Of a DNA stretch of 64,000 nt, positions 28,721 to 54,761 are shown one piece after another. The first letter of the stretch is position 1; each line of letters starts with the position of its first letter. The stretch is from an uncultured Actinomycetes bacterium (lineage in GTDB: Bacteria > Actinomycetota > Thermoleophilia > Solirubrobacterales > Solirubrobacteraceae). The stretch covers positions 100,050-164,049 of the forward strand of contig CAVPQY010000005.1 in the NCBI GenBank assembly GCA_963707695.1. Reading direction: 5' to 3'. The notes under the pieces were generated by a model. That model was given only the letters and a program-made list of their open reading frames with translations. It made no database searches and had not been told where the DNA came from. The translations under genes and the position numbers were made by a program.

Positions 28721-29638
28721 TCAGCCGCGCAGCGCCTCGCGCTGCTCGAGCTCGCTGCGCACGGCGTCCTCGTCGAAGCGGAAGTACGAGCGCGGCGGGA
28801 GGATCCCCCAGGCGTTGGAGGCGTGCGGGTCGTCCGGGAACCGCCGCGGCTCGTGGTCGGCCTCGAGCTGCTCGAGGTCGCAGAAGAGCTCGATGAAGTG
28901 CTCCTCCTCCACCATCCGCCAGTAGGCGAAGAGGTTCTGCGCCATCGAGTGGCGCCCCGGCCCCCACACGACGTTGCGCCCGTGCTGGGCGAGGTGGTCG
29001 AGCGCGACGCGCAGCTCGCCCCAGTCCACGAGCTCGAAGGCGAGGTGGTGGAGGTGCTCGTAGCCCTTCTCCAGGAACGCCAGGACGTGGTGGTCGCGGT
29101 CGCAGTGCAGCCAGACCGCGCCGTCGCCGATCCGGTCGGTCACCGCGAGGCCGAGGACGTCGGTGTAGAAGGCGACGAGCGGCCCGACGTCCGCGGTGAG
29201 GTAGTTCACGTGCTGGAAGCGGCGCGGGTGGAACGCGGGCAGCGCGTCGGTGCGGCGGAAGACCGGCGGGGTGCGGTCCTCGGGGAGGACCCGCTCGAGC
29301 AGCGCGACGCCGTTGCCGGCGGGGTCCTGCAGCCGCAGCCCGCGGCCGCGCACGGGGACGTCGACCTCGTGCGCGTCGACGCCGTGCGCGGCCAGCCGGT
29401 CGGCGGCCTGCGCGAGCGTCGTGCCCCGGCGCAGCTCGTAGGCGACGAACTCGACGCCGGGCGCGGCGTCGTCCGCCGGCACGAGGTCGAGGCAGAAGTC
29501 CTCGTAGGCGCAGCGCAGCAGGGCGTGCCGACCGTCGCCGTCGCGCTCGCCGGTCAGCCCCAGCAGTCGCCCGTAGCGGGCCGCGGCCTCGTCGACGTCG
29601 GCCGTGCGGACGCGCGCGTGGTGGATCGAGCCGACCAT
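28721..29638 (-). CDS. Type I extradiol ring-cleavage dioxygenase (two-domain VOC fold; catechol/homoprotocatechuate 2,3-dioxygenase-like)
   Basis: C-terminal 305 aa of track ORF 28721..31303 from ATG 29638. It reads MVGSIHHARVRTADVDEAAARYGRLLGL..., FQHVNYLTADVGPLVAFYTDVLGLAVTDRI..., WLHCDRDHHVLAF, HLHHLAFEL and GPGRHSMAQNLFAYW. Confidence 0.8.
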   Translation of the reverse strand: MVGSIHHARVRTADVDEAAARYGRLLGLTGERDGDGRHALLRCAYEDFCLDLVPADDAAPGVEFVAYELRRGTTLAQAADRLAAHGVDAHEVDVPVRGRGLRLQDPAGNGVALLERVLPEDRTPPVFRRTDALPAFHPRRFQHVNYLTADVGPLVAFYTDVLGLAVTDRIGDGAVWLHCDRDHHVLAFLEKGYEHLHHLAFELVDWGELRVALDHLAQHGRNVVWGPGRHSMAQNLFAYWRMVEEEHFIELFCDLEQLEADHEPRRFPDDPHASNAWGILPPRSYFRFDEDAVRSELEQREALRG

Positions 29639-29640
29639 GG

Positions 29641-31135
29641 TCAGCGGCCCTCCTCGTAGAGCGACGTGCGCTCGCAGACGGTCTTGACGTCGCAGTAGAA
29701 GTCGAACGAGTGGTGGCCGCCCTCGCGGCCGATGCCCGAGTCCTTCGTCCCGCCGAACGGCGTCTCGAGGTCGCGGACGTAGAAGCAGTTGACCCACACC
29801 GTGCCCGCGCTGATCCGCGCGCTGAGCTCGTGGGCGCGGTCCGGGGAGCCCGTGTAGATCGTGGCGGCGAGGCCGAAGTCGGTGGCGTTGGCCAGCCGGA
29901 CGGCCTCCGCGTCGTCCTCGAAGGGCTGCAGCGCCAGGACCGGGCCGAAGACCTCCTGGCGCAGGAGCTCGGCGCCGGCGGGGACGTCGGTGAAGAGCGT
30001 CGGCGGGTAGTACAGGCCGCCGAGCGGCTCGCCCCCGAAGGCGAGCGTGGCGCCTTCCTCGAGCGCGCGGTGCGACGTGCGTGGTCACGCGCTCGAGCGC
30101 GACCGGGTGGATGAGCGGGCCGTACGTCGTGCCCGGCTCGCGCGGGTCGCCGACGCGGATGGCGCCGACGCGCGCGCTGAAGCGCTCCAGGAAGTCGTCC
30201 AGCACCGAGCGCTGGACGAGCAGCCGGGTGCCGGCGAGGCAGACCTGGCCGGAGTTGTCGTACTGGTAGGCGGCGGTCGCCGCGGCGGCGTCGAGGTCGG
30301 CGTCGTCGAGGACGACGAAGGGCGACTTGCCCCCGAGCTCGAAGGAGACGGGCGTCAGCTGGGCGGCGGCGTCGCGGTACACGGTGCGCGCGGTCGCCGG
30401 CGAGCCGGTGAAGGCCACGCGGTCGACGCCGGGGTGGCCGGTGAGCGGCGCGCCCGCCTCCGCGCCGGTGCCGTGCACGACGTTCAGGACTCCGGGCGGC
30501 AGGCCCGCCTCCAGGGCGAGGTCGCCGAGCATGGAGCAGGTCAGCGGGGCCCACTCCGGCGGCTTGAGCACGACGGTGTCCCCCGCCGCCAGCGCGGGCC
30601 CGACGCGCCAGGTGGCGAGCATGAACGGCGCGTTCCAGGGCGTGGAGACGGCGACGACGCCGGCCGGGTCGTGCCGGACGGCGTTGCGCTCGCCGCCGGG
30701 CAGGGTGCGGGGCGCCTCGGCCAGGCGCTCGACGGCGAAGTCGGCGAAGAAGCGGATGTTGCTCGCGCCGCGCGGCAGGACGCGCAGGCGCATCGCCTCC
30801 AGCAGCGACCCGTTGTCGACCGTCTCGACGGCCGCGAGGTCGGGCACCGCCGCGGCGATCGCCTCCGCGAAGCGCGACAGGAGCGGGCGCCGGCCCTCGG
30901 GGCCGAGCGCCGCCCACGCGGGGAAGGCGGCGCGCGCGGCCGCCACGGCCGCGTCGACCTCGGCCGGGCCGCCGGCCGCGACGTCGGCCAGGCGCCGGTC
31001 CCAGCTCAGGGGCGAGCGCACCTCGAAGGTCCGCCCGCCGGCGCTGGGCACGCGCTCGCCGCCGATGAGGTGGTCGGTCGGGACGGCGACGCCCTCGACG
31101 GTGGCCGTGCGGCCGGTGGTCGTCGTGCTGCTCAT
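29641..31135 (-). pseudogene. Aldehyde dehydrogenase, hydroxymuconic/5-carboxymethyl-2-hydroxymuconic semialdehyde dehydrogenase-like; frameshifted as sequenced (extra base near 30069-30070)
   Basis: The N-terminal 355 aa are in the frame of ORF 28721..31303 from ATG 31135 (MSSTTTTGRTATVEG...STPWNAPFMLATWRVGPALAAGDTVVLKPPEWAP...FELGGKSPFVV...NSGQVCLAGTRLLV...HPVALERVTTHVA). My own translation of the next frame gives a perfect ALDH C-terminus: RALEEGATLAFGGEPLGGLYYPPTLFTDV...QEVFGPVLALQPFEDDAEAVRLANATDFGLAATIYT...VWVNCFYVRDLETPFGGTKDSGIGREGG...YEEGR, with the stop at 29643-29641. Confidence 0.8.
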
Positions 31136-31680
31136 GGCCGGCCGAGCTCCTGGGCGTCGCGGACGACCCGCCGCAGCAGGCGGGCCAGGGTGGCGCGCTC
31201 CTCGGGATCCAGGCCCGCGGTGAGGGCGGACTCGCCCGCGTTGAACTCCGGGAAGAGCGCCTGGATGAGCCGCTCGCCGTCGTCGGTCAGGGCCAGGCGG
31301 CACAGCCGCCGGTCGGTCTCGTGGCCCTCGCGGCGCACGAGGCCCCGGCGCTCGAGCGTGTCCGCGACGCCGGAGATCGTCGGGCGGGCGACGCCCGTCG
31401 AGTCCGCCAGGGCGCGGACCTCCCGCGGTCCCCAGACCCAGACCGTGAAGAGCGTCGCGAAGCCGGTCCAGCTCAGGTCGTGGCGGCGCAGGACGGTCCG
31501 CTCGAGATGCGAGCGGACGCCCTGGGCGGCGCGGAACACGTTGGCGCAGACCGCCATCGCCGCGAGGTCGACGGGGAGATCGCCGACGCGCGCGAGGACG
31601 TCGGCCTCGGCGGGGACGAGCGGGTCGGCCTGGGCGGCGCGGGGGCCGGCCGGGTCGTGGGGCGGGCGCTGGACGGCCAC
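31132..31680 (-). CDS. MarR-family transcriptional regulator
   Basis: Track ORF 31132..31680. The winged HTH reads LSWTGFATLFTVWVWGPREVRALADSTGVARPTISGVADTLERRGLVRREGHETDRRLCRLALTDDG. The stop overlaps the ALDH start (ATGA). The true start may be internal. Confidence 0.85.
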   Translation of the reverse strand: MAVQRPPHDPAGPRAAQADPLVPAEADVLARVGDLPVDLAAMAVCANVFRAAQGVRSHLERTVLRRHDLSWTGFATLFTVWVWGPREVRALADSTGVARPTISGVADTLERRGLVRREGHETDRRLCRLALTDDGERLIQALFPEFNAGESALTAGLDPEERATLARLLRRVVRDAQELGRP

Positions 31681-31691
31681 GACCGCAGACG

Positions 31692-31707: not shown

Positions 31708-32433
31708 ATGCGGTCAAGGGACCGAGGGACGCCGGGTCGGCCCGGGCTCGTGCTCCAGCACGGGGCCACCGGGCCGCCGGACCTGCTCGAGCGCTGGCTG
31801 CGGACGCGCGGCGTGCCCTTCGACGTGCACCACGCCGACCGCGACGCGCTGCCCGCCGACGTCCGCGGGCGCGCCTTCGTCGCGTCGCTGGGCTCGCGGC
31901 ACTCGCCCGCCGGCGGCGGCCCCGCCTGGGTCGGACAGGAGGTCGAGCTCCTGCGCGGCGCCGTGGCCCACGACGTCCCCGTCCTCGGCCTGTGCTTCGG
32001 CGGACAGGCACTGGCCGCCGCCCTCGGCGCGCCGGTGCGCCGGGCCGCGCGCGGCGAGGTGGGGTGGGCGGACGTCGAGACGGACGACCCCGGGCTCGTC
32101 CCGTCCGGGCCGTGGCTCTGGTTCCACTGGGACGTCTTCGCCGTCCCGTCCGGGGCGACGGAGGTCGCGCGCTCGCCTGCGGGCCCCGCGGCCTTCACCC
32201 ACGGCCCGCACCTCGGCGTCCAGTTCCACCCCGAGACCGGGCCCGACGTCGCCGACGCCTGGGCGCGCAAGGAGGTCGAGCGCCTCGCCGCCCTCGGCCT
32301 GACGCCGGACGTCCTGCTGGCCCAGGGCCGCGCCGTCGCCGACCGCGCGGCCGCCCAGGCCGCGCGCCTCTTCGACGCCTGGTGGGCGCGGGCGCGCGCC
32401 GTGCGGGCGGCGACGCCGGAGGGCGTCGCGTGA
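31708..32433 (+). CDS. Class I glutamine amidotransferase-like protein (possible gamma-glutamyl-amide hydrolase)
   Basis: Track ORF 31708..32433. It reads LVLQHGATGPPDLLERWL, the nucleophile elbow PVLGLCFGGQALA, and VQFHPE. The alternative start is GTG 31750. Confidence 0.75.
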   Translation: MRSRDRGTPGRPGLVLQHGATGPPDLLERWLRTRGVPFDVHHADRDALPADVRGRAFVASLGSRHSPAGGGPAWVGQEVELLRGAVAHDVPVLGLCFGGQALAAALGAPVRRAARGEVGWADVETDDPGLVPSGPWLWFHWDVFAVPSGATEVARSPAGPAAFTHGPHLGVQFHPETGPDVADAWARKEVERLAALGLTPDVLLAQGRAVADRAAAQAARLFDAWWARARAVRAATPEGVA

Positions 32434-33807
32434 CCGCTGCGGCCTCGCCGGCCGGCCTCCGCGCGCTGCTCGCGCAGGAGGAGGAGCGCTTCGTGGCAGC
32501 GCGCCCGGCCTCCGCCCGCCTCGCCGCCGAGGCGTCGGGGTCGCTGCTCGGCGGCGTGCCGATGACGTGGATGGCGAAGTGGCCCGGGCCCTTCCCGCTC
32601 TTCCTGGAGCGCGCGCGCGGCGCCCGGCTCGAGGACGTCGACGGCCACACCTACGTCGACCTGTGCCTGGGCGACACCGGCGCGATGGCCGGCCACAGCC
32701 CGCGGCCGGTCGCGGACGCGGTGACGGAGCGCCTGACGCACCGCGGCGGCGCCACGACGATGCTCCCCACGGAGGACGCCGCGCGGGTGGCGGGGCTGCT
32801 GGCCGACCGCTTCGGCCTCCCGACGTGGAGCTTCGCGCTGTCGGCGACCGACGCCAACCGCTGGGTCCTGCGCCTGTGCCGGCACCTCTCGGGACGACGG
32901 AAGGTCCTCGTGTTCGACGGCTGCTACCACGGCACGGTGGACGAGACCTTCGCGGTCCTCCGCGACGGGCGGGTCGTCGCCCGGGACGGCAACGTCGGCG
33001 CCCCGGCCGACCTCACGACGCACGACGCGCGTGTGCGCGTTCAACGACCTCGGCGCCGTCGAGCGCGAGCTCGCCCACGGCGACGTCGCGTGCGTGCTCA
33101 CCGAGCCGGCGTTGACGAACATCGGGATCGTCCTGCCCGAGCCGGGGTTCCTGGACGGGCTCGCCGCGGCCTGCCGGCGGACCGGGACGCTGCTCGTGAT
33201 CGACGAGACGCACACGCTCAGCGCCGGCTACGGCGGGTGCACGCGCGCCTGGGGCCTCGAGCCGGACGTCGTCACGATCGGCAAGGCGATCGCCGGCGGC
33301 GTCCCGATCGGCGCCTTCGGGCTGACCGCCGAGCTCGCGGCGCGCGTCACCGCCCTGCGGGACGCCGACCTCGTCGACACCGGCGGGGTGGGCGGCACGC
33401 TGGCCGGCAACGCGCTGTCGCTGGCCGCGGCCCGCGCGACCCTGTCCGAGGTCCTGACCGAGGGCGCGATGGCGCGAATGGTCGCCCTGGGCGAGCGCTA
33501 CGCCACCGGGCTGCGCGCCGTGCTGGCCGAGGCCGGCCTGGCCTGGTCGGTCGTCGGGCTCGGGGCCCGGGCCGAGTTCTCCTTCGCGGCGACGCCGCCG
33601 CGCGACGGCGCCGCGGCGGCCGCGACCCACGACGACGACCTCGACCGCTACGTCCACCTCGCGCTCCTGAACCGCGGCGTGCTGCTCACGCCCTTCCACG
33701 CGATGGCTCTCATGAGCCCGGCGACGACCGCCCAGGACGTCGACGCCGCGCTGACGGCCTTCGCCGAGGTGCTCGCGCCGCTCCGGCCGGACGTCAGAGC
33801 GCGCTGA
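32430..33807 (+). pseudogene. Class III (GSA-aminomutase-like) PLP aminotransferase; frameshifted as sequenced (indel near 33030-33040)
   Basis: The GTG overlaps the GATase stop (GTGA). The N-terminal part is in the frame of ORF 31992.. (VTAAASPAGLRALLAQEEERF...YVDLCLGDTGAMAGHSP...FALSATDANRWVLRL...FDGCYHGTVDE...APADLTTHDARV). The remainder is in ORF 33031..33807 (AFNDLGAVERELAHGDVACVLTEPALTNIGIVLPEPGFL...LLVIDETHTL...VTIGKAIAGGVPIGAFG...GGTLAGNALS). Confidence 0.8.
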
Positions 33808-34723
33808 CGCGCGTGACGACGTCCCGGCACCACCCCGCGAACGCGGCGCGGTCGTCGAGGAACTGGCTCGGCTTGAGGCAGATCGAGCCGAAGCCGCGGG
33901 CGACCTGGGCCGGGATCGTCGCCAGCGCCTCGTCGAGGTCGGCGACCCCGTCGGCCGTCGGGAAGCGGCCGCGCACGCCGCCGACGAGCTCGAGGGCGTC
34001 CGGGTCGCGCCCGGCGTCGCGGAGCGCCGCGCGCACGCGCGCGAGGTCCTCGTCGCCGAGCGGGCCGAGCGGGTTGAGCCCATGGCCGTGGCGGACGAGG
34101 CGCCGCAGCAGCCGGGGGTGCAGCGAGCTGCCGCCGAACCACAGCCGCACGCCGTCGGGCCGCCACGGCTTGGGCTCGACGACGACGTCCGCGAAGGCGT
34201 AGTGGGCGCCGCGGAAGGACGACGGCGTCGTCGTCCACGCGGCCTCCCAGGCGGCGAGGTGCTCGTCGAGCAGCGCGCCGCGCGCCGCGAAGTCGACGCC
34301 GAGCGCGTCGTACTCGGCGCGGTGCCAGCTCACGGTCGGCAGCACGACGAGCCGCCCCTCGCTGAGCAGGTCGAGCGTCGCGAGGTCCTTGGCGAGCAGG
34401 AGCGGGTGGCGCAGCGGGGCGATGACGGCGGCGGCGGCGAGGCGGATCCGCGTCGTGGCGGAGGCGATCGCGGCGAGCAGGACCGTCGAGCTCGGCCAGG
34501 GCATGCGCGGGTCCTGGTTGCCGGGCAGCGCGTACTCGCGCGGGTTGGCCATCGGGCCGCCGGCGTCCGCCCCAGGCCCGAGGACGACGTGCTCGCTGAG
34601 CATCACCGCGTCGAAGCCCGCGTCCTCGGCCTCGGCGGCCATGCGCACGAGGCCGCGCAGATCGCGCGGGTCGGCGAGCGTCCAGTTCTCGCTCAGGACG
34701 AGGACGAGCCGGACGCCGGTCAT
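33794..34723 (-). CDS. Luciferase-like monooxygenase (LLM) class, probably F420-dependent oxidoreductase
   Basis: Track ORF 33794..34723. It reads LVRMAAEAEDAGFDAVMLSEHVV, IRLAAAAVIAPLRHPLLLAKDLATLDLLSEGRLVV and WFGGSS. Confidence 0.75.
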   Translation of the reverse strand: MTGVRLVLVLSENWTLADPRDLRGLVRMAAEAEDAGFDAVMLSEHVVLGPGADAGGPMANPREYALPGNQDPRMPWPSSTVLLAAIASATTRIRLAAAAVIAPLRHPLLLAKDLATLDLLSEGRLVVLPTVSWHRAEYDALGVDFAARGALLDEHLAAWEAAWTTTPSSFRGAHYAFADVVVEPKPWRPDGVRLWFGGSSLHPRLLRRLVRHGHGLNPLGPLGDEDLARVRAALRDAGRDPDALELVGGVRGRFPTADGVADLDEALATIPAQVARGFGSICLKPSQFLDDRAAFAGWCRDVVTRVSAL

Positions 34724-35514
34724 GCCGGCGGCAGGTCCTGGAAGGTCGTGGTCGCGACGTCGACGACGCTCGAGCCGCCGTCGACCGCGAGCACCGCCCC
34801 CGTGACGAACGACGCGTCGTCGCCGGCCAGGAACGCCACCGCCGCGGCGATCTCGGCAGGATCGGCCGCCCGGCGCAGCGGCGTGTGGCGCACGGACGCG
34901 GCGTAGGCGGCCTCCCGGTCGAGCCCGAGCCCGGCGCCGAGCTCGTCCATCTCGCCGTCCGCCATCGGCGTGCGGACCCAGCCCGGGGCGACCGCGTTGA
35001 CGCGCACCTCCGGGCCGTAGTCGAGCGCCGCCTGCCGGGTCAGCATGAGCAGCGCGGCCTTCGCCGTCGCGTACGGCGCGACGCCGGGGCCGGCGCGCAG
35101 CCCGGCCACGGAGCTGACGTTGACGACCGCCCCGCGCGTGGACCGCAGCACCGGCAGCGCGGCGCGCAGCACGAGGAAGGCGCCGGTGAGGTTGAGCTCG
35201 AGCGCGGTGCGCCAGTCGGCCGGGGTGACGTCGGCCACGGCGCCGGCGCCGCCCGCGCCGGCGTTGTTGACGACGACGTTCAGCGCGTCCCCGGCCACCG
35301 CGACGGCCCGCGCCACGTCGTCCTCGTCGGTCACGTCGCCGGCGACCGCCACGCCCCGGCCGTCGGGGAGCGCCGCCGCGGCGCGCTCGACGAGCTCGGC
35401 GCGCCGGCCGACCAGCACGACGCGCGCCCCCTCGCCGGCCAGCCGCCGGGCGACGGCCAGCCCGATGCCGGTGGCGCCGCCGGTGACGAGCGCCGTGCGC
35501 CCGGCGAACCTCAC
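34720..35514 (-). CDS. Short-chain dehydrogenase/reductase (SDR)
   Basis: Part of track ORF 34720..35838 from GTG 35514. It reads RTALVTGGATGIGLAVARRLA, NNAGA, VNVSSVAG, YATAKAAL and NAVAPGWVRTPM. It has 4-nt overlaps with both neighbouring genes. Confidence 0.85.
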   Translation of the reverse strand: MRFAGRTALVTGGATGIGLAVARRLAGEGARVVLVGRRAELVERAAAALPDGRGVAVAGDVTDEDDVARAVAVAGDALNVVVNNAGAGGAGAVADVTPADWRTALELNLTGAFLVLRAALPVLRSTRGAVVNVSSVAGLRAGPGVAPYATAKAALLMLTRQAALDYGPEVRVNAVAPGWVRTPMADGEMDELGAGLGLDREAAYAASVRHTPLRRAADPAEIAAAVAFLAGDDASFVTGAVLAVDGGSSVVDVATTTFQDLPPA

Positions 35515-36053
35515 GGCGCCGCCCCGCGCAGGCTTCGCGTCCACCGGCGCTCGCCGTCCTCGCGCGCGCCGCCCGGCGCCAGCCCGAGGTGCTGGGCGAC
35601 GGCCTCCGACGCGCGGTGCCCGGGCGCGATGTGGGCGACGAGCTCCTCGACGCCCTGGGTGGCCAGCCAGCCTGCGACCGCCGTGGCCGCCTCGGTCGCC
35701 AGGCCCTGCCCCTGGTGCGCGGTCGCGACCACCCAGGCCAGCTCGGCGCGGCGGCGCCCGTCGGCCTCGGTGACGGTCGCCTGCACCGTGCCCGCGGGCG
35801 GGCCGCCGGCGGCCGGCCGCAGGACCCAGTTCAGCCATGCGGCGCGGCCGTCGGGCGACACGCCGCCCTCGCGCCGCGCGTAGGCGGCGCGCAGCTCCCC
35901 CGCGGTCGCAGGCGCGCCGCCCGTGAAGGCGTGCAGCGCCGGGTCGTCGAGGACGGGGGCGAGCTCGTCGGCGTGGCCGGCCCGCAGCGGGTCGAGCACG
36001 AGGCGCGCGGTCGCCAGGGTGACGGCCCGCGGGTGGCCGGCGGGCGCGCTCAC
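35511..36053 (-). CDS. GNAT-family N-acetyltransferase (RimJ/RimL-like)
   Basis: C-terminal 180 aa of track ORF 35511..37745 from GTG 36053 (GTGA overlap with the decarboxylase stop). It reads LATARLVLDPLRAGHADEL...AELAWVVATAHQGQGLATEAATAVAGWL...ELVAHIAPGHRASEAVAQHLG. Confidence 0.75.
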   Translation of the reverse strand: MSAPAGHPRAVTLATARLVLDPLRAGHADELAPVLDDPALHAFTGGAPATAGELRAAYARREGGVSPDGRAAWLNWVLRPAAGGPPAGTVQATVTEADGRRRAELAWVVATAHQGQGLATEAATAVAGWLATQGVEELVAHIAPGHRASEAVAQHLGLAPGGAREDGERRWTRSLRGAAP

Positions 36054-37495: not shown

Positions 37496-37552
37496 GCCCA
37501 CGGGGCTCGGACTTGACGCTCCCTCCCGGTCCCGGTAGACCATCGCACCGAT

Positions 37553-43882: not shown

Positions 43883-43964
43883 GGGCGACCGATGAGTCCC
43901 GGGCCGCCTCGCCGTCTGTGGGGGCATGGGCGTGCGCGCAGCGGAGGGGCCGGGACCGGTGGGG

Positions 43965-43986
43965 GAGGTGCGGCTCGCCGCACCTC
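43965..43986 (+). terminator. Perfect 9-bp hairpin after the DUF202 gene
   Basis: GAGGTGCGG-ctcg-CCGCACCTC. There is no T-tract. Confidence 0.4.
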
Positions 43987-44026
43987 GTGACGCCGGGTAC
44001 CGGCCGGGCCGGCGGACCCCCGGATC

Positions 44027-45271: not shown

Positions 45272-45487
45272 GCGGCGAGCCGCCCGTTCGGACGGCGCAC
45301 CGCAGCGGCCGCGGCCCGAGCTGCGCGTGCCGCGCCGGACCGCGCGACGCAGGATGGTCGCACGGGGGCCGGGCGGCCCATCGGCGTCCCCGGCGCCCCG
45401 CCCGCACCGCCGGCCGGAGGAGGACCGTCATCGGGTCCGGGGGGCTGCCGCACCCTCGTGGCGGCGTCTCGGTGCCAGCCTCCTCGC

Positions 45488-46051: not shown

Positions 46052-46095
46052 GCGGTGGCGCCGGGCATGTGGGACCCTCGGCCAGGGAGGATCCC

Positions 46096-46773: not shown

Positions 46774-46782
46774 GTTGGGGCG

Positions 46783-47592: not shown

Positions 47593-47885
47593 GGCCGGCG
47601 CGCCACGACGCGGACCTCGACGCGGGCGGGCCGCGTCGGGTCGCCGAGGGAGAGGAAGTCGCGCACCCGCGCGGCGTGCGCGCAGAAGGGGCAGGCCATC
47701 GCGTCGGCCGGCGCGGCGCCACCGGGCGGGAGCGCGACCGGCGCGTCGCAGGCCGGGCAGGCGAGGGTCCCCCGGGCGACCGGGGCCGTCCGGCCGACCC
47801 GGCGCAGCTCGCGCTCGCCGCCGAGGTCGCCGACGCGGTCGGGACCGACGGGCTCGGGACCGCCCAGGCCACGGTGCAGGCTCAC
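47589..47885 (-). CDS. Hypothetical small zinc-ribbon-like protein
   Basis: Tail of track ORF 47589..48821 from GTG 47885. It reads ...GTLACPACDAPVALPPGGAAPADAMACPFCAHAARVRDF... (CPxC...CPxC). There is no clear RBS. Confidence 0.3.
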   Translation of the reverse strand: MSLHRGLGGPEPVGPDRVGDLGGERELRRVGRTAPVARGTLACPACDAPVALPPGGAAPADAMACPFCAHAARVRDFLSLGDPTRPARVEVRVVARRP

Positions 47886-48017
47886 GGACAGGAGTCTAGG
47901 CCGCCGTTGGCCGCTCCTCACCGGCCGCTCGCCGCGCTGCCGTGGCCGCGAGCGCAACTCCGGGTCGGGGTGGCCGGTTGGGGCCTGCGTACCCCGACCA
48001 AGGAGCAGTCCCTCCCC

Positions 48018-48704
48018 ATGCCCTCCCGTCTCTCCCGCCTGCGCGCCCGGCTGAGCTTCGCCAACGTGACGTCCGCCGTCGCCCTGTTCATCGCGCTCGG
48101 CGGCACGAGCTACGCCGCCGTCAGCGTCGGCTCCGCCGAGATCCGCACCGACGCCGTCGGCGCGTCCGAGCTCCGCCGCGACGCGGTCGGCGCCTCGGAG
48201 ATCCGCCGCAACGCGGTCGGCACGTCGGAGGTCCGCACGAACGGCGTCGGCAAGTCCGAGATCAAGACCGGCGCGGTCGGCCGCGCCGAGCTCGGCGCCG
48301 ACACGGTCTTCTCCTCCGAGCTCGCCCCGGGCTCCGTCGGCTCGGACGAGCTGCGCGACGGCCAGGTCGCCCTGGCGGACCTCTCGACGGAGGCGCGGAC
48401 GGCGCTGACCCAGGCCGATCGGGCGATGGTGAGCTCGGGCGGCGCGCTCGCCGGCGGGACCGCCAAGCTCGCCACCCGCACCGCGACGGGCACCTACACG
48501 GTGACCTTCGCGCGGGACGTGAGCGCCTGCACCTACACGGCGACGCTCGCCGGCGTGAAGAGCGGGACGACGGTCGAGCAGCCCGCCGCGGGCAGCGTCA
48601 CGGTCGCCCCCGCGACGAGCCCGGCGACCGACGTCGTGGTGAAGACCTACGACGCGACCGGGACCGCCGCCGACGGCCCGTTCCACGTCCTGGCGACCTG
48701 CTGA
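48018..48704 (+). CDS. N-terminally anchored/secreted protein with seven 10-aa tandem repeats
   Basis: Tail of track ORF 47082..48704 from ATG 48018 (AAGGAG upstream). The anchor is [24 protein letters not shown]. The repeats are [71 protein letters not shown] beta-rich C-terminal domain ends in C. Confidence 0.65.
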
Positions 48705-48714
48705 CGAGCGGTGC

Positions 48715-48813
48715 GGCGGGGTGGCGCTCCGGCGCCGCCCCGGCCACCGGCGGGGTGGCGCTTCGGCGCCGCCCCGGCCACCGGCGGGGTGGCGCTCCGG
48801 CGCGGTTCCACCC
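48715..48813 (+). repeat. 34-bp tandem direct repeat (2.9 copies); each unit forms a GC hairpin
   Basis: The unit is GGCGGGGTGGCGCT(C/T)CGGCGCCGCCCCGGCCACC, at 48715-48748 and 48749-48782, with a partial copy at 48783-48813. The stem within each unit is GGGGTGGCGC / GCGCCGCCCC (one G-T pair) with a T(C/T)CG loop. Confidence 0.8.
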
Positions 48814-48850
48814 GCGTGCAACGTGTGGCGACGCTCCTAGACTGGAGAGC

Positions 48851-49483
48851 ATGCTCTTCTCGCGCGACAAGGAGCGCTCCGCGGCCACGCTTCCGGGCCG
48901 CGACGCCTCGCCGTTCCCGATCCCGGAGCGCCACGCCGTCCTCGGCACGCCGCTCCAGCCGCCGTTCCCCGAGGGGCTCGAGGTCGCGTACTTCGCCCTC
49001 GGGTGCTTCTGGGGGGCCGAGCGCCTCTTCTGGCGCCTGGACGGCGTCTACTCGACCGCAGTCGGCTACGCCGGCGGCCGCACGCCGTTCCCCACCTACC
49101 GGGAGACGTGCACCGGCCGCACGGACCACACGGAGACCGTGCAGGTCGTCTACGACCCGGCCAAGATCTCCTACGCCGACCTGCTGAAGGTCTTCTGGGA
49201 GGAGCACGACCCGACCCAGGGCGACCGGCAGGGCAACGACGTCGGCACGCAGTACCGCTCGGCGATCTTCACGACGACCGAGGCGCAGGCCGCCGACGTC
49301 GAGCGCACCCGCGCCGCCTTCGAGGAAGGGCTGCGCGCCGCCGGGCACGGGTCGATCACGACCGAGGTCGCCCCGGCCGGCCCGTTCTACTACGCCGAGG
49401 CCGACCACCAGCAGTACCTCCACAAGGTGCCCCACGGCTACTGCGGCCTGAAGGGCACCGGCGTCAGCTGCGCGATCGCCTAG
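48851..49483 (+). CDS. msrA: Peptide-methionine (S)-S-oxide reductase
   Basis: Part of track ORF 47942..49483 from ATG 48851. It reads [51 protein letters not shown] and HQQYL. Confidence 0.9.
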
Positions 49484-49502
49484 CGGCGGGGAGGCGCCCG
49501 GA

Positions 49503-50396
49503 CTAGGCCCGGCAGCGCAGCGTCCCGCGGTCGAGCGTCCGCCCGGCCGCGCCGACGAAGGCCCAGCGGGCTCTCCCGCGCCGCAGCTGCAGCCGCAGCG
49601 CGCCGTACGTCGAGTCGTTCCCGAACGCCAGCCGGCGGTCGTCGCGCAGCGGGTAGAGGCCGCGGCCGCCGGCGCCGGAGACGAACTGCGTCAGCCCGCC
49701 GGAGGGCCGGAAGCGCTGCAGGTCGTGGTCGTGCCCGCTGAGGACGATCGTCGCGTGACCGCGCAGCGCGTCCCAGAGCGGGGCCATGTCGGCCTGGTCG
49801 CCGTGCAGCCCGGCGCTGAGGCGCGCGCGGTGCCAGAACGCGATCCGGCACGTGCCGCGATCCCGCAGCTGGCGCCGCAGCCAGCGCTCCTGCGGCGAGC
49901 CCCGGTCGTGCGCGGCCTCGGAGTCGAGCGCCAGCAGCGTCCACCCGCCCGCCGAGAAGCGGTACCAGTCCGGCGGCGTCCGGCCGTGCACCCGCCGCCA
50001 GTAGGGGTCGTAGCCCGAGCGCTGGCTGCGCGCGTCGTGGTTGCCCGGCACGGGCGCGGTGATCCGCGCCAGGCGCCCGTAGCTCGGCGCGTAGCCCGTC
50101 CGGAACTCCGCGGCCGTCCCGCTCTCGTAGACGTCGCCGAGGTAGAGGAAGCGGTCCGGCCGCCCGCGCGCGATGCGCGCCGCGACAGCGCGCCCGTCCG
50201 CGCGGGCGTCGCCGTCGCCGACCGCCCAGACCGTCGCCGTCGCCCCCGGGACCGATCGCACGAACGGCCCGCCGCCCGAGCCCGGGACCCGGTCGCCGGA
50301 GCCGCCTCCGAGGCGGCCGCTCGCGACGGCCACGGCGGCGAGGACCACGACGAGCAGGGCGGTGAGCGCGACGAGGACCGGGTGCCGGCGGGCCAT
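49503..50396 (-). CDS. Calcineurin-like metallophosphoesterase, membrane-anchored/secreted
   Basis: Track ORF 49503..50396. The anchor is VLVALTALLVVVLAAVAVA. It reads WAVGDGD, YLGDVYE, PGNHD, FWHRA and SGHDHDLQR. Confidence 0.8.
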   Translation of the reverse strand: MARRHPVLVALTALLVVVLAAVAVASGRLGGGSGDRVPGSGGGPFVRSVPGATATVWAVGDGDARADGRAVAARIARGRPDRFLYLGDVYESGTAAEFRTGYAPSYGRLARITAPVPGNHDARSQRSGYDPYWRRVHGRTPPDWYRFSAGGWTLLALDSEAAHDRGSPQERWLRRQLRDRGTCRIAFWHRARLSAGLHGDQADMAPLWDALRGHATIVLSGHDHDLQRFRPSGGLTQFVSGAGGRGLYPLRDDRRLAFGNDSTYGALRLQLRRGRARWAFVGAAGRTLDRGTLRCRA

Positions 50397-50691: not shown

Positions 50692-51579
50692 CTACCCGGC
50701 GCGGTCGGCGTCGCCCGTGCTCGCGCGGGTGGCGGCCGCCTCGCGCTCCGCCTCGTCCTCGGGCATCGCGAGCGCCACGTGCAGCGTGGCGGCGGTCACC
50801 CGCGGCTGCTCGCCCACGGGCTCGAGGTCGCGGTCGAGCTCCACGACGGGGTTGCTCAGGCGGCCGATGCCCTCGATCTCGACGTCGACGACCTGGCCCG
50901 GCTGGACGGGGCGCGAGCGGGCCGGGGTGCCGGTCAGCAGGACGTCGCCGGGCTCGAGCGTCATGAGCCGCGCCGCGTCGGCGACCTGGTAGGCGGCGCT
51001 GAAGACGAGGTCGGTGCCCGTGTGCGCCTCCTGGACGAGCTCGCCGTCGACGTAGGTCCGCAGCCACAGGTCGTCGGGATCGACGTCCTGCGCGTCGACG
51101 AGCACCGGGCCCAGCGGGCAGAAGCCGTCCTGGCCCTTGACGCGCAGCATCGCCCCGCGGTCGGCGTGGCGGAAGTCGTGGACGCCCCAGTCGTTGGCGA
51201 CGGTGTAGCCGCGGACGTAGCGCAGCGCGTCGGCGACGGAGGTCCCCAGGCAGCGCTCGCCGATGACGACGGCCAGCTCACCCTCGTAGTTCAGGAAGCG
51301 GCAGCCCCGGGGCCGCGCCACGGGCGCGCGGTGGGCGCTCACCGACGACGGCGGCTTGAGGAAGAAGGCGGGCGCCTCGAGCGGGTGCGCCATCGCGTAC
51401 TCCTCCATGCGGGAGCGGTAGCTGAGGTGCGTCGCCACGATCTTCGACGGCGGGGGCACGGCGGGCAGCCAGACGGCGCCGGCGGTCGCCACCGTGCGCC
51501 CGTCCGGCAGCGTGATGACGTCGCCGTCGACCGTGCCCTCGACGGCCTGCCCGTCCACCTCGATCCGCGCGTGCCTCAC
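50692..51579 (-). CDS. Fumarylacetoacetate hydrolase (FAH)-family enzyme (HpaG / oxo-acid decarboxylase-isomerase-hydratase-like)
   Basis: C-terminal 295 aa of track ORF 50692..52518 from GTG 51579 (GTGA overlap with the upstream stop). It reads KIVATHLSYRS, FFLKPPSSV, LNYEGELAVVIG, GYTVANDWGVHDF, KGQDGFCPLGP and GDVLLTGTP. Confidence 0.8.
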   Translation of the reverse strand: MRHARIEVDGQAVEGTVDGDVITLPDGRTVATAGAVWLPAVPPPSKIVATHLSYRSRMEEYAMAHPLEAPAFFLKPPSSVSAHRAPVARPRGCRFLNYEGELAVVIGERCLGTSVADALRYVRGYTVANDWGVHDFRHADRGAMLRVKGQDGFCPLGPVLVDAQDVDPDDLWLRTYVDGELVQEAHTGTDLVFSAAYQVADAARLMTLEPGDVLLTGTPARSRPVQPGQVVDVEIEGIGRLSNPVVELDRDLEPVGEQPRVTAATLHVALAMPEDEAEREAAATRASTGDADRAG

Positions 51580-52385
51580 GGCCGCATCGCCTCCTTGTCG
51601 TGCTGGGCGACGACCTCGCCGCCGTCCACCGTGTACCCGAAGGAGAAGCGGAAGCCCTTGAGCACCTCGTGGGGCGCGATCGCCTGCAGGTCCTCGAGCG
51701 TGTCGTCGTAGAGCCGCAGCTCCGCGCTGCCCTCCCAGACCTCGGTCGCCTCGCGGTCGGTCCCGCCGGCCCGGACGAGCTCGGCCACGGCCGGCACGAC
51801 GCCGTCGTAGGCCGGGAAGTGGCGGGTGTTGTGCATGGGCGGGTCGTTGACGGTGGGGCCGGTCTCCGACACGCGCTCGAGCGTCACGACCGCGCGCGCC
51901 ACCTGCCGGTCGTTCGCGGCGCAGGTCGCCCCGAAGCGCGCGCCCGCGGCCATGCCGTGCGGCGCCGCCCTCCCCACCGGGAAGGTCCGCGTGACGTGGA
52001 TCGAGCCGAGCTTCTTCGGGAAGCCCTGGATCCAGCCGCGGTACATCGCGAAGTCCTTGTCGACCCAGATGTAGACGCACCGGCTGACCGGCTGACCGCG
52101 GAACGTGGCCCCGACCACGAGGAAGAACTCCTTGTACTGGCTCTGGATCGGGTCGACGAGCTCGTGGAAGTCGCCGCTGCACGACTGCCAGTCGGCGAAG
52201 ATCGCGGCGACCGCGCCCGCGTCGGCGGCGGGCTCGAGCTCGGGCGGCAGCAGCGCGGCGACCGCGGCCGGGTCGGTGCGGTACTCGACGATGAGGAAGT
52301 CGCCCGAGTAGTGCCACGGCGGCGGCGGGACGAGGCTCGCGCGGCCATCGGGGGAGAGGGGTGCGGTGTAGCCCTTGGGCGGCAT
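51576..52385 (-). CDS. Acetoacetate decarboxylase (ADC)-family protein
   Basis: Track ORF 51576..52637 trimmed to ATG 52385. It reads PKGYTAPLSPDGRASLVPPPPWHYSGDFLIVEYRTDPAAVAALLP, EFFLVVGATFRG, YIWVDKDFAMYRGWIQGFPKKLG and GFRFSFGYTV. Confidence 0.7.
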   Translation of the reverse strand: MPPKGYTAPLSPDGRASLVPPPPWHYSGDFLIVEYRTDPAAVAALLPPELEPAADAGAVAAIFADWQSCSGDFHELVDPIQSQYKEFFLVVGATFRGQPVSRCVYIWVDKDFAMYRGWIQGFPKKLGSIHVTRTFPVGRAAPHGMAAGARFGATCAANDRQVARAVVTLERVSETGPTVNDPPMHNTRHFPAYDGVVPAVAELVRAGGTDREATEVWEGSAELRLYDDTLEDLQAIAPHEVLKGFRFSFGYTVDGGEVVAQHDKEAMRP

Positions 52386-52532: not shown

Positions 52533-52727
52533 ATGGCGCTGAAGGTCGACGTCGACATGGACCTCTGCCAGTCGCACGGCGAGTGCGTGTTCGCCGCGCC
52601 GGAGGTGTTCGAGCTCGACGACGACGACCAGCTGCACTGGGTCGCCGAGCCCGACGAGTCGCTGCGCGAGAAGGTCCAGCAGGCCGAGAAGGTCTGCCCC
52701 GTCTCCGCCATTCGGGTCACCGGGTAG
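52533..52727 (+). CDS. Small [3Fe-4S]-type ferredoxin (P450 redox-partner type)
   Basis: Tail of track ORF 51600..52727 from ATG 52533 (GGAAGGGAG upstream). It reads MALKVDVDMDLCQSHGECVFAAPEVFELDDDDQ...KVCPVSAIRV (CxxHxxC...CP pattern). Confidence 0.8.
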   Translation: MALKVDVDMDLCQSHGECVFAAPEVFELDDDDQLHWVAEPDESLREKVQQAEKVCPVSAIRVTG

Positions 52728-52738
52728 CCTCCGGCGCC

Positions 52739-53965
52739 ATGGACCGCGTCGTCGTCGTCGGCGCGTCGCTCGCGGGTCTGCGCGCCGCCGAGGCGGTGCG
52801 CGAGCAGGGCCACGAGGGGGCGCTCGTGGTCGTGGGCGACGAGCCCCACGCGCCCTACACGCGTCCGCCGCTCTCCAAGCAGCTCCTCGCCGGCGCGTGG
52901 GAGCGCGAGAAGGTCGACCTGCGCTGGCGCGAGGTCGAGGCCGAGTGGCGCCTCGGCGTCGGGGCGACCGGCCTGGACGCCGCGCGCCGCCGCGTGGCGC
53001 TCGCCGACGGCGACGAGGTCCCCTACGACGGGCTCGTGGTCGCCACCGGGGCGCGGCCGCGGCCGTGGCCGGGCGCCCACGCGCCGCCCGACGGGGTCTT
53101 CACCCTGCGCGGCGTCGACGACGCGCTCGCGCTGCGCGACGCGCTCGGGACGGCGGGCCGGATCGTCATCGTCGGGGCGGGCTTCATCGGCTGCGAGGTG
53201 GCCGCCACCGCGCGGGCCCGCGGGGTGGACGTCGTCCTCTGCGACGTCGCGGCCACGCCCATGGCGGTGCTCGGGCCCGAGCTCGGCGCCGCGTGCGCCG
53301 CGCTCCAGCTCGACCACGGCGTGGAGCTCGCCCTCGGGCGCGGCGTGGAGCGCTTCGAGGCCGACGGCGCCGGCCGGCTCGCGCGCGTCGTGCTGGCCGA
53401 CGGCGCCGCCGTCGAGGCGGAGGTCGCGCTCGTCGCGCTCGGCGCGCTGCCGAACGTCGGCTGGCTCGACGGCTCGGGCCTCGACGTCTCGCAGGGCCTC
53501 GTGTGCGACGTCCACTGCGCGGCGGTCGGCCACCCGGAGGTCGTCGGCGCCGGCGACGTCGCCGCCTGGCCGCACCCCCTCGCCGGAGGCGACCTCGTCC
53601 GCGTCGAGCACTGGAGCAACGCCGCCGAGCAGGGCACGCTGGCGGGGGCGAACCTCCTGCGCGCGCCGGCCGACCGCGAGCCGTACGACGCGGTGCCCGC
53701 GTTCTGGTCGGACCAGTACGACGTCAAGGTCCAGTCCGTCGGCTTCCCCACGCACGCCGAGCGCGTCCGGGTGCTCGAGGGCTCGATCGCCGAGCGCCGC
53801 TTCGTCGCCGCCGGGGAGCGCGACGGGCGCGTGATCGCCGCGATCGGCTTCAACGCCGCCCGCCGCATGCCCGCCTACCGGCGCCACATCGCCGAGCGGG
53901 CGTCCTTCGACGACCTCGTCGCCGCGCTGGCCGACGACGAGCGCGCCCTGCCCGTCGCCGGCTGA
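52739..53965 (+). CDS. FAD-dependent ferredoxin-NAD(P)+ reductase (putidaredoxin-reductase-like)
   Basis: Track ORF 52361..53965 from ATG 52739. It reads RVVVVGASLAGLRAAEAVR, PYTRPPLSK, IVIVGAGFIGCEVAATAR, GAGDVAAW, VEHWSNA and FWSDQYD. Confidence 0.85.
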   Translation: MDRVVVVGASLAGLRAAEAVREQGHEGALVVVGDEPHAPYTRPPLSKQLLAGAWEREKVDLRWREVEAEWRLGVGATGLDAARRRVALADGDEVPYDGLVVATGARPRPWPGAHAPPDGVFTLRGVDDALALRDALGTAGRIVIVGAGFIGCEVAATARARGVDVVLCDVAATPMAVLGPELGAACAALQLDHGVELALGRGVERFEADGAGRLARVVLADGAAVEAEVALVALGALPNVGWLDGSGLDVSQGLVCDVHCAAVGHPEVVGAGDVAAWPHPLAGGDLVRVEHWSNAAEQGTLAGANLLRAPADREPYDAVPAFWSDQYDVKVQSVGFPTHAERVRVLEGSIAERRFVAAGERDGRVIAAIGFNAARRMPAYRRHIAERASFDDLVAALADDERALPVAG

Positions 53966-53975
53966 AGGGGCGCGG

Positions 53976-54761
53976 ATGGCCGGCGACGAGCGCGTGGTGA
54001 CGGCCCGTGGCCGCGCCGTGCCGCGGATCGGCCTGGGAACCTGGCAGCTCCACGGCCGGGCGGCCCGCGACGGGGTGGCCGACGCGCTCGCCCTCGGCTA
54101 CCGCCACCTCGACACGGCGTCGATGTACGGCAACGAGGAGGAGGTCGGTGCGGGGCTGCGCGCGAGCGGGGTCGACCGCGACGAGGTCTGGATCACGACG
54201 AAGGTCTGGCGCACCGACCTCGCGCCGGCCCGGCTGCGGGCCAGCGCGGAGGCCTCGCGGCGGCGCCTCGGCGTCGAGCGGATCGACCTGCTGCTGGTGC
54301 ACTGGCCCGACGGCGCCGGCACGTGGCGCGCCGGCCTGGAGGAGCTCGCGGCGCTGCGCGAGGAGGGCGTCATCGCCGAGCTCGGCGTGAGCAACTTCGA
54401 CGCGTCGCTGCTGGAGGAGGCGCTCGTCCGCGCGCCGGTCTTCGCCGACCAGGTCGAGCACCACGTCGGGCGGCGCCAGGACGCCCTCGAGGGCCTCGCG
54501 GCCGACCGCGACCTGGTCCTGACGGCGTACTCGCCGCTGGGGCAGGGCGGCCTGCTGCGCGACCCCGTGCTGAACGAGGTCGCCGCCGCCCACGGCGTGT
54601 CGCCCGCCCAGGTGGCGCTGCGCTGGCTCGTCGAGCAGGACCGCTGGACGGCGATCCCGCGATCGTCCTCGCACGAGCGCCGCGGCGAGGACCTCGACGT
54701 CTTCTCGTTCGTGCTGTCGGCCGAGGAGCGTGCGCGGCTGGAGCGGGTCGTCGCGCCGTGA
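53976..54761 (+). CDS. Aldo/keto reductase
   Basis: Track ORF 53976..54761. It reads GLGTWQL, GYRHLDTASMYGNEEEVG, WITTKVW, IDLLLVHWP, GVSNF, AYSPLGQG and LRWLVEQ...IPRSS. Confidence 0.85.
   Translation: MAGDERVVTARGRAVPRIGLGTWQLHGRAARDGVADALALGYRHLDTASMYGNEEEVGAGLRASGVDRDEVWITTKVWRTDLAPARLRASAEASRRRLGVERIDLLLVHWPDGAGTWRAGLEELAALREEGVIAELGVSNFDASLLEEALVRAPVFADQVEHHVGRRQDALEGLAADRDLVLTAYSPLGQGGLLRDPVLNEVAAAHGVSPAQVALRWLVEQDRWTAIPRSSSHERRGEDLDVFSFVLSAEERARLERVVAP

Follow-up and report, generated by a model that had tools for sequence, protein, structure and literature searches.

A fragmented gene cluster in an uncultured Solirubrobacteraceae bacterium suggests a conserved route of glutamylation, P450 oxidation and meta-cleavage for aromatic alkylamines

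Introduction

Some bacteria convert an amine to its gamma-glutamyl amide before they attack it with oxygen. In the Ipu pathway of Pseudomonas sp. KIE171 and Arthrobacter aurescens TC1, which comprises a permease, IpuC, a cytochrome P450 with its ferredoxin and reductase, the class I amidotransferase-like protein (GATase) IpuF and an aldehyde dehydrogenase, the P450 hydroxylates the gamma-glutamyl amide (PMC6776027). In the aniline and 1-naphthylamine pathways encoded by AtdA1-A5, TdnQTA1A2B and NpaA1-A5, a GoaS enzyme glutamylates the aromatic amine because the oxygenase accepts the gamma-glutamyl form only; the adjacent GAT-like hydrolase is dispensable there, and the catechol product is ring-cleaved (PMC11335346). 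Here we describe a locus in an uncultured bacterium of the Solirubrobacteraceae, within a stretch of 64,000 nucleotides of contig CAVPQY010000005.1 (the window), in which the region from 28721 to 54761 encodes a glutamine synthetase (GS)-like protein, a P450 and enzymes resembling those of homoprotocatechuate (HPC) meta-cleavage. We put at roughly 60% the probability that this region is a fragmented copy of a conserved operon for the catabolism of an aromatic alkylamine, likeliest of the tyramine or dopamine type, or of its parent amino acid. By analogy, the system would work as a hybrid of HPC meta-cleavage and the order of glutamylation before oxygenation seen in Ipu and Atd/Npa. We found no description of this gene combination in the literature.

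By gene family, the locus resembles the Ipu cluster in having a permease, a GS-like ligase, a P450, a separate ferredoxin and ferredoxin reductase, a GATase and an aldehyde dehydrogenase (ALDH). However, the Ipu substrate is a small aliphatic amine and no ring-cleavage enzymes take part, whereas here the same module is interleaved with genes for an extradiol dioxygenase, an HpaE-like ALDH, an HpcE-like enzyme of the fumarylacetoacetate hydrolase (FAH) family and an enzyme of the acetoacetate decarboxylase (ADC) superfamily, and often with a gene for an amino-acid decarboxylase. With the aniline and 1-naphthylamine pathways the locus shares a GS-like ligase and a GATase-like hydrolase alongside an oxygenase and ring cleavage. 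There, a Rieske dioxygenase strips the nitrogen from a ring carbon; here, the oxygenase is a P450 monooxygenase and the lower pathway is of the HPC type. The decarboxylase and the permease suggest that the amine is probably carried on a side chain.

The lower half of the locus recalls the hpa/hpc pathway, as its dioxygenase, ALDH and FAH enzyme match HpaD, HpaE and HpcE/HpaG best, and the order MarR-ALDH-dioxygenase echoes hpaR-hpaE-hpaD. It differs in that these scores lie below the equivalog cut-offs, that HpaBC, the isomerase HpaF, HpaH and HpaI were found neither in family scans of the region nor among the recurrent families of 80 related loci, and that an ADC-superfamily enzyme stands in the place of the hydratase and aldolase. 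Finally, in the Puu pathway, and likewise in the case of Streptomyces GlnA2/3/4 and Pseudomonas aeruginosa PauA7, a GS homologue that lacks D50 and E327 uses ATP to attach an amine to the gamma-carboxyl of glutamate (PMC6529630). The present locus shares with these systems a hydrolase of the PuuD/GATase family, and its version in Streptomyces canus has PuuC-like and PuuD-like neighbours, but it has no PuuB oxidase, and those systems involve neither a P450 nor ring cleavage. Among the ligases of this kind, PauA7 glutamylates aromatic monoamines.

Results

With a G+C content of ~76%, the window contains 108 open reading frames (ORFs) of at least 100 aa, with long ORFs in all frames, and the raw ORF list was therefore uninformative. 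Genes were instead called from codon and GC3 statistics, and their products were scanned against Pfam and NCBIfam. These scans recovered, at the expected positions, every family named in an initial annotation of the region, which had read the 26 kb as a single island for amine catabolism. The limits of the region, 28721 and 54761, coincide with gene ends, namely the stop codons of the dioxygenase and of an aldo-keto reductase (AKR).

A scan of one genome per species yielded 80 loci with an orthologue of the P450, many of them on truncated contigs. The genomes belong mostly to Solirubrobacterales, Conexibacter, Rubrobacter and Gaiella, with some Acidobacteriota. We compared the window's proteins with these loci by tblastn, requiring a query coverage of at least 50%, and counted matches within 10 kb of the P450 orthologue. 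The GS-like gene was present in 71 of the 80 genomes, the dioxygenase in 66, the FAH and ADC-like enzymes in 64 each and the ALDH in 63. The permease (53/80), the decarboxylase (38/80), a GntR regulator (32/80) and the GATase (30/80) followed, and then the ferredoxin reductase (28/80), the ferredoxin (24/80), an SDR oxidoreductase (23/80) and an LLM-class oxidoreductase (13/80). By the same count, each gene of the stretch from 42390 to 50396 lies near the P450 orthologue in only 0-3 genomes. Because the core families recur in 63-71 genomes and the interrupting genes in 0-3, the grouping is far beyond chance. Thus, the functional link that the initial annotation had drawn between separate transcription units is upheld by comparative data, but its single 26-kb island is not, since ~8 kb of it is unrelated.

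How the units are arranged elsewhere makes the same point. Homologues of the P450 with 66-91% identity occur in metagenome bins of Solirubrobacterales type, the nearest (91%) coming from a JGI metagenome. The closest relative with a long contig is a soil metagenome contig (L001; P450 76% identical), in which all units lie uninterrupted within ~16 kb, in the order dioxygenase-ALDH-MarR / GATase / permease / GS-P450-GntR-decarboxylase-SDR-LLM / FAH-ADC / ferredoxin-reductase. The stretch from 42390 to 50396 is missing there. In a metagenome-assembled genome of Capillimicrobium the genes form a single operon, FAH-ferredoxin-reductase-[GATase::GS fusion, 676 aa]-P450-dioxygenase-ADC-ALDH-M20 peptidase-permease, and on a third contig the GS-P450 pair adjoins decarboxylase-P450-permease-dioxygenase-FAH-Peptidase_C26-GntR. 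More generally, the order in Solirubrobacterales and Conexibacter is FAH-ferredoxin-reductase-GATase-GS-P450-dioxygenase-ADC-ALDH-(M20)-APC, where APC denotes the permease; in Gaiellales it is APC-P450-GS-FAH-dioxygenase-ADC-(SDR)-ALDH-P450b-Rieske-reductase-decarboxylase; and in Acidobacteriota it is APC-GS-P450-C26-ADC-FAH-ALDH-dioxygenase. An equivalent gene set is borne by a linear plasmid of S. canus (L086, NZ_CP107732.1), and the GS-P450 pair is also retained in Embleya and S. lunaelactis. Co-localisation of the orthologues in related genomes, on which the initial annotation had staked its reading, is therefore borne out: the genes mostly make up one interleaved operon, which occurs in several phyla and in no fewer than three arrangements. 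The linkage is hence real, and the scattered units of the window are a rearranged, interrupted copy of one conserved operon.

De novo clustering of all genes in the 80 loci revealed no further widely recurrent family. The minor ones were LysR (12 loci), M20 (11), Peptidase_C26 (7), Amidohydro_3 (6) and a Rieske ferredoxin (6). Conversely, some genes of the region are not part of the conserved set: the class III aminotransferase, the GNAT acetyltransferase and the AKR were each found near the P450 orthologue in 0/80 genomes and MarR in 1/80. We therefore take all four to be local additions and not pathway members, and two of them, the aminotransferase and MarR, drop out of the set of partners first proposed. 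A phenylalanine hydroxylase beside the L001 cluster was considered as a clue to the substrate and given no weight, as it occurs in that genome only.

In the Acidobacteriota copies (L048-L053, from Holophagales, Thermoanaerobaculia and 'Ca. Multivorans'), the ALDH, ADC-like and FAH proteins are 69-75% identical to those of the window, and two Amidohydro_3 genes precede the cluster. Because these identities exceed those of many Thermoleophilia, they suggest that the lower module of the Acidobacteriota copies was transferred horizontally.

The GS-like gene (39119-40471, plus strand; Gln-synt_C 7e-104) most likely encodes a gamma-glutamyl-amine ligase of the GoaS type that has lost its ammonia site. 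In an alignment with archaeal and bacterial GS structures (8oow, 7tdp), the FDGSS motif with D50 and S53 is replaced by AFCWAV and an insertion of eight residues, and the flap motif PGYEAP, with E327, reads PDSLAP. The motifs for ATP, glutamate and metal binding are intact (GPELEFF, NHE..QYEIN, GSGFHVHLS, NAYRR and RLEVR), so that the protein combines the GS fold and its ligands with a lost ammonia site, as GoaS enzymes do. These substitutions are shared by 51-60 of 60 orthologues: FDGSS occurs in none of them, and DSLAP in 51. Loss of D50 and E327 is the criterion that separates GlnA4 and PauA7 from true GS (PMC6529630), and the suspicion that the protein is not a bona fide GlnA thus holds for the window and for its orthologues. 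It stays below the cut-off of every NCBIfam equivalog model, with 311 bits against the GlnA model TIGR00653 (cut-off 429), 334 against the type III GS model (cut-off 470) and 287 against the gamma-glutamylputrescine synthetase (PuuA) model NF045547 (cut-off 650). No PDB match stands out as closer than the others, and PA5508 (4hpp) scores just 129 bits.

The GATase (31750-32433, plus strand; Pfam GATase and Peptidase_C26) carries the GLCFGGQ and QFHPE motifs of a Cys-His-Glu triad, and is a candidate gamma-glutamyl-amide hydrolase or glutaminase. The GATase and the GS-like ligase form one fused gene in 4 genomes, and in 25 more the GATase gene directly precedes that of the ligase. The notion that a second P450 and a gamma-glutamyl hydrolase exclude each other was dropped, as the loci split 18, 7, 5 and 1 with no clean pattern.

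The P450 (40472-41731, plus strand) belongs to the CYP125/CYP268 clan. It is 54% identical to the reconstructed CYP125 ancestor (CYP125MRCA), 44% to CYP268A2 and 38.5% to an extant CYP125 (5dqn), where the family criterion applied was more than 40% identity to CYP125 members. CYP125, CYP124 and CYP268 are the closest solved P450s; unlike them, however, the window's enzyme does not sit in a cholesterol, sterol or other lipid catabolic context, but is flanked in 71/80 genomes by the GS-like ligase and ring-cleavage genes. It also bears a clade-specific LPFSSP insertion that is missing from CYP125 and CYP268A2. In the form LPF(S/R)(S/N)P this insertion is found in 72/72 orthologues and is absent from 13/15 second P450 copies. 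As R(H/L)LPF(S/R/N)SP (residues ~197-205 of the window P450; also L086, L087 and L088), it is common to GS-linked P450s of Actinomycetota, Acidobacteriota and Alphaproteobacteria, among them those of Streptomyces, Mesorhizobium and Sagittula. Since it precedes the I-helix motif, the insertion probably sits in the F-G loop. It marks a P450 clade dedicated to GS-type ligases and presumably acting on gamma-glutamyl amides, as in Ipu, and could serve as a sequence marker for such enzymes. GS-(GATase)-P450 modules are found in Mesorhizobium loti pML2037 (P450-reductase-permease-GS-...-PuuD-like) and in Sagittula stellata (GS-GATase-P450), and their P450s are 43-46% identical to that of the window.

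We propose that the small single-cluster ferredoxin (52533-52727; Pfam Fer4_13 and Fer4_15) and the FAD ferredoxin-NAD(P) reductase (52739-53965; Pfam Pyr_redox_2 and Reductase_C), both on the plus strand, are the redox partners of the P450. The GS-like ligase, P450, ferredoxin, reductase and GATase, which are spread over three units in the window, are contiguous in relatives as FAH-ferredoxin-reductase-GATase-GS-P450; hence the components of an Ipu-type system are encoded together.

The lower pathway begins with a two-domain VOC (type I) extradiol dioxygenase of 305 aa (28721-29638, minus strand), in which Pfam Glyoxalase matches two stretches. Alignment to 3b59 shows the conserved H in FQHVNY, H in HLHHLAF, GPGRH..FAYW and E in IELF, so that two VOC domains, the 2-His-1-Glu triad and the catalytic His and Tyr positions, which we take to match those of XylE, are all present. 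Its best NCBIfam match is HpaD (TIGR02295), at 118 bits below a cut-off of 321, and it scores only 34 bits against the HPC dioxygenase 1f1r. On the S. canus plasmid, the equivalent slot is filled at 8966-9901 by a LigB-type dioxygenase, with HpaD_Fe as its best model; here a non-orthologous enzyme has taken over from the VOC type in a cluster that is otherwise equivalent. As two unrelated extradiol folds fill this slot, the activity required there would be extradiol cleavage of an HPC-like catechol. The HpaE-like NAD(P)-ALDH (29641-31135, minus strand; Pfam Aldedh 1e-146 for the fused protein) matches HpaE best (TIGR02299, 506 bits, cut-off 638). The HpcE/HpaG-like FAH enzyme (50692-51579, minus strand) has E. 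coli HpcE (1gtt, 229 bits) as its best PDB match, followed by HpcE of T. thermophilus (180 bits); it scores 216 bits against NCBIfam HpaG-C (cut-off 276) and has one FAH domain instead of two. The hpa-like reading of these genes given in the initial annotation is thus sustained at the level of best matches, below the cut-offs.

The ADC-superfamily enzyme (51576-52385, minus strand) falls in family V and is not of the acetoacetate decarboxylase type, to judge from its motifs and matches. MppR (228 bits), Sbi00515 (206 bits) and Swit_4259 (124 bits) are its PDB matches. Its Schiff-base lysine lies in the motif GFPKKLG, identical to that of Sbi00515, and aligns with K156 of MppR and K122 of Sbi00515; the motif is kept in 50/54 orthologues. 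It differs from MppR proper in scoring below the equivalog cut-off (TIGR04460, 256 bits against 380). The reaction of MppR, Sbi00515 and Swit_4259 runs between 2-oxo-3-enoates on one side and pyruvate with an aldehyde on the other, and Swit_4259, whose gene is part of an aromatic-degradation cluster, hydrates 2-oxo-hex-3-enedioate. We know of no ADC family V member with an established physiological role in meta-cleavage. In Sulfolobus solfataricus, MppR-like proteins are co-induced with catechol meta-cleavage genes and have been proposed to act as aldolase (PMC7820114). As neither HpaH nor HpaI is conserved, we assign the hydratase-aldolase step provisionally to the ADC-like enzyme, which would replace both.

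Upstream of these steps, import would fall to the APC-family amino-acid/amine permease (37591-39111, plus strand; Pfam AA_permease). A group II decarboxylase of 483 aa that depends on pyridoxal phosphate (PLP) (36050-37501, minus strand; Pfam Pyridoxal_deC) has the DAHKW PLP-lysine motif; its best PDB matches are Trp decarboxylase (4obu, 205 bits), DesA (198), DOPA decarboxylase (195) and Tyr decarboxylase (190). Of the remaining genes, those encoding the LLM, SDR, GNAT and GntR/FCD proteins had gone unmentioned in the initial annotation, as had the frameshifts described below and the ~8 kb of unrelated genes. The F420-dependent LLM-class oxidoreductase (33794-34723; TIGR03619, 180 bits, cut-off 167), which is also present in the S. 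canus cluster, and the SDR oxidoreductase (34720-35514; Pfam adh_short_C2) lie on the minus strand and are accessory. So, probably, is the class III aminotransferase of the PRK07046 family (32430-33807, plus strand; Pfam Aminotran_3; 633 bits, cut-off 425), whose start overlaps the GATase stop. The GNAT acetyltransferase (35511-36053, minus strand; Pfam Acetyltransf_3) is part of the decarboxylase operon in the window only. The MarR regulator (31132-31680, minus strand; Pfam MarR), shared with L001, is local to the window's lineage, and the AKR (53976-54761, plus strand) follows the ferredoxin reductase. The GntR/FCD regulator (41728-42393, plus strand; Pfam GntR and FCD) lacks a canonical start codon, as neither ATG nor GTG nor TTG occurs from 41461 to 41857. 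At 41728, a CTG shares bases with the stop codon of the P450 gene (CTGA); a protein begun there would have 221 aa, compared with 226 aa for the L001 orthologue.

Three genes in the 64 kb switch frame without a stop codon: the HpaE-like ALDH (~30070-30073), the aminotransferase (~33010-33030) and, at ~59020, a minus-strand ABC-F/EttA-like ATPase (58398 to ~59870). In the ALDH, the L001 orthologue aligns with 84% identity in frame -1 and 81% in frame -2, and 4 nt separate the two pieces. Since the housekeeping ABC-F gene is affected as well, these switches are more likely sequence indel errors than pseudogenes, and we disfavour reading those in the ALDH and aminotransferase as a sign of pathway decay.

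Discussion

The conserved set can be arranged into a plausible pathway. The compound would be imported by the APC permease and, where needed, converted from amino acid to amine by the group II decarboxylase. The GS-like ligase, unable to use ammonia, would then join the amine to the gamma-carboxyl of glutamate at the expense of ATP, and the dedicated P450, fed by the ferredoxin and its reductase, would oxidise the gamma-glutamyl amide. After formation of a 4-substituted catechol, the extradiol dioxygenase would open the ring, the HpaE-like ALDH would oxidise the ring-fission semialdehyde, the HpcE-like FAH enzyme would isomerise and decarboxylate the product, and the MppR/Sbi00515-like ADC enzyme would hydrate and cleave it in place of HpaH/HpaI, releasing pyruvate. 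Glutamate would be recovered by the GATase, Peptidase_C26 or M20 hydrolase. A substrate of the tyramine or dopamine type would fit both the family of the decarboxylase and the HPC-type lower pathway.

The P450 could act in at least two ways. First, it could hydroxylate the ring to give the catechol; second, it could hydroxylate the alpha-carbon, giving an aryl-acetaldehyde and glutamine. Correspondingly, loss of the glutamyl group could precede ring cleavage, or follow it in the form of gamma-glutamyl-GABA (gamma-aminobutyrate), or take place as release of glutamine. The initial annotation had supposed that deglutamylation comes first and that oxidation to an aromatic acid follows. Such an Ipu-like course, with deglutamylation straight after hydroxylation, would call for a deaminating enzyme, and none is conserved; moreover, 12/31 complete clusters have no gamma-glutamyl hydrolase of any kind. 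That part of the earlier scheme may yet hold, but finds no support in these counts.

Alternatively, the glutamyl group could protect the nitrogen, as a handle that stays in place until the catechol has been formed and its ring opened by extradiol fission. The aldolase step would then yield pyruvate and gamma-glutamyl-4-aminobutanal, which would join the Puu route through a PuuC-like ALDH and a PuuD-like hydrolase to GABA; this variant fits because the S. canus cluster has just such a PuuC-like ALDH and PuuD-like hydrolase. In the other variant, the P450 would hydroxylate the carbon beside the nitrogen and the amide would collapse to an aryl-acetaldehyde and glutamine, which the GATase would recycle. 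This would amount to an ATP-driven oxidative deamination and would require a pre-formed catechol or a second P450. It fits because so many clusters are hydrolase-free, because the GATase::GS fusions could recycle glutamate and because Capillimicrobium has a StyD-like second ALDH. That the glutamyl group follows one of these two courses, and is not removed straight after hydroxylation, is a tentative idea to which we give somewhat less than even odds.

Several observations weigh against the proposed catabolism of an aromatic alkylamine. CYP125, CYP124 and CYP268 hydroxylate the aliphatic termini of lipids and sterols, and not aromatic rings (PMC12100521). By its best matches, the decarboxylase is no closer to the Tyr and DOPA decarboxylases than to those for Trp, Lys and diaminobutyrate, and it is found in fewer than half of the clusters. 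No HpaF-type tautomerase and no deaminating enzyme are conserved across the 80 loci, and the clusters that lack a gamma-glutamyl hydrolase, noted above, count against it as well. In the window itself, the genes for the ALDH and the aminotransferase each appear with a frameshift. Finally, no protein reaches the HpaD, HpaE, HpaG, PuuA or MppR equivalog cut-off, and all enzymatic assignments are therefore analogies at the level of the family.

What else could the locus be? One might see in it two independent pathways that happen to be neighbours, an Ipu-type module for an aliphatic amine and a separate homoprotocatechuate-type module for an imported aromatic acid. The units are physically separate transcription units in the window, aliphatic carbons are what the P450 clan is known to hydroxylate, and the GS-GATase-P450 modules of M. 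loti pML2037 and S. stellata stand without ring-cleavage genes. But most genomes interleave both modules co-directionally, as in FAH-ferredoxin-reductase-GATase-GS-P450-dioxygenase-ADC-ALDH or APC-P450-GS-FAH-dioxygenase-ADC-ALDH, and the association persists over three gene orders and a transfer between phyla. Moreover, the P450 is the sole conserved hydroxylase able to make the catechol. We therefore regard two separate pathways as improbable.

We see about as little prospect for a pathway of the aniline or aminophenol type (Atd/Tdn/Npa-like), in which the P450 would replace the Rieske dioxygenase on a gamma-glutamyl anilide and yield a catechol or aminophenol for meta-cleavage. A GS-like and a GATase-like gene beside an oxygenase and catechol cleavage genes is indeed the Atd/Npa layout, and the patchy occurrence of the GATase here matches the GAT-like protein that is dispensable there (PMC11335346). 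Yet the large and small Rieske oxygenase subunits that define those systems are absent from the window region, and six loci have merely a small Rieske ferredoxin. A single P450 monooxygenation would not suffice to turn an anilide into a catechol, the lower pathway is of the HPC type (best matches HpcE and HpaE) and not of the catechol type, and a PLP decarboxylase and an amino-acid permease recur in the clusters.

Less probable still is a biosynthetic cluster, whether for a building block derived from tyrosine or DOPA through extradiol cleavage, like the alkylproline of lincomycin and pyrrolobenzodiazepines, or for amino-acid tailoring of the MppR type. The best match of the ADC-like protein is the enduracididine enzyme MppR, and alkylproline biosynthesis, too, has an extradiol dioxygenase and an oxidoreductase of the F420-dependent LLM class. 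However, the MppR cut-off is not reached, the LLM gene accompanies few of the clusters, and nonribosomal peptide synthetase, polyketide synthase, resistance or export genes are not conserved near the 80 loci. The conserved partners are catabolic instead: a permease, repressor-type regulators of the GntR and LysR families, an NAD-ALDH and an HpcE-like decarboxylase. Least likely of all is a generic GlnA3/Puu-type locus for polyamine or monoamine detoxification with unrelated neighbours. In its favour are the GS-like score on the gamma-glutamylputrescine synthetase model and the PuuC-like and PuuD-like proteins of the S. canus and Acidobacteriota versions. But that score is far from the cut-off, no PuuB-type oxidase is present, and such a locus would leave unexplained the tight linkage to a P450, an extradiol dioxygenase and HpcE-like and ADC-like enzymes in more than 60 genomes.

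If aromatic alkylamine catabolism is indeed the function, the cluster would define a new and phylogenetically broad route by which biogenic amines or amino acids of the aromatic kind are broken down. More than 80 species from little-studied lineages of soil bacteria carry the cluster, and it also occurs on plasmids of Streptomyces. Such a route would extend the principle of glutamylating first and oxygenating second from anilines and small alkylamines to the ring cleavage of side-chain amines. Were the glutamyl group retained through ring fission, or released as glutamine, biogenic arylethylamines would be degraded by a new logic, and one that would be common among the Actinomycetota and Acidobacteriota of soils. 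The GS-linked P450s that the LPFSSP insertion sets apart would gain a function as an entire clade, and the orphan MppR/Sbi00515 type would provide the first physiological role of an ADC-superfamily enzyme as a meta-cleavage hydratase-aldolase. The cultured and sequenced hosts Conexibacter sp. S30A1 and DBS9H8 and S. canus NBC_00633 make these ideas directly testable.

Additional observations on the window

The unrelated ~8 kb (42390-50396, mixed strands) encodes, according to Pfam scans, a sulfite-oxidase-like enzyme, a DUF202 protein, an LPG-synthase transmembrane (TM) protein, a GNAT protein, a rhodanese, MsrA, a metallophosphoesterase and two proteins without a family match. The first two, a sulfite-oxidase-like molybdoenzyme and the DUF202 membrane protein (42390-43882), overlap stop-to-start with GntR and with each other. 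Because of these overlaps, the permease-GS-P450-GntR unit would be co-transcribed with both here, although they are linked elsewhere in just 0/80 and 3/80 genomes. The LPG-synthase-TM protein (44027-45271) ends at its C-terminus in a tandem repeat of five residues, VVAPEVVAPELVAPELVAPELVAPELV, and a protein of 244 aa without a Pfam match (47970-48704) combines an N-terminal hydrophobic segment with AVGxSE(I/L)R repeats of about nine residues.

Just outside the region, 24451-27910 encodes a second ALDH, 40% identical to that of the cluster, and a GMC oxidoreductase of 669 aa that has a long extension at its N-terminus; these two genes are not conserved alongside the cluster. Scans for tRNA genes and Rfam families found nothing relevant to the region. 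Elsewhere in the window, a tRNA-Asp gene (GTC) at 6624-6700 is followed from 6700 to 10000 by a stretch of lower G+C content (~0.72) with few confident ORFs, which may be an integrated element.

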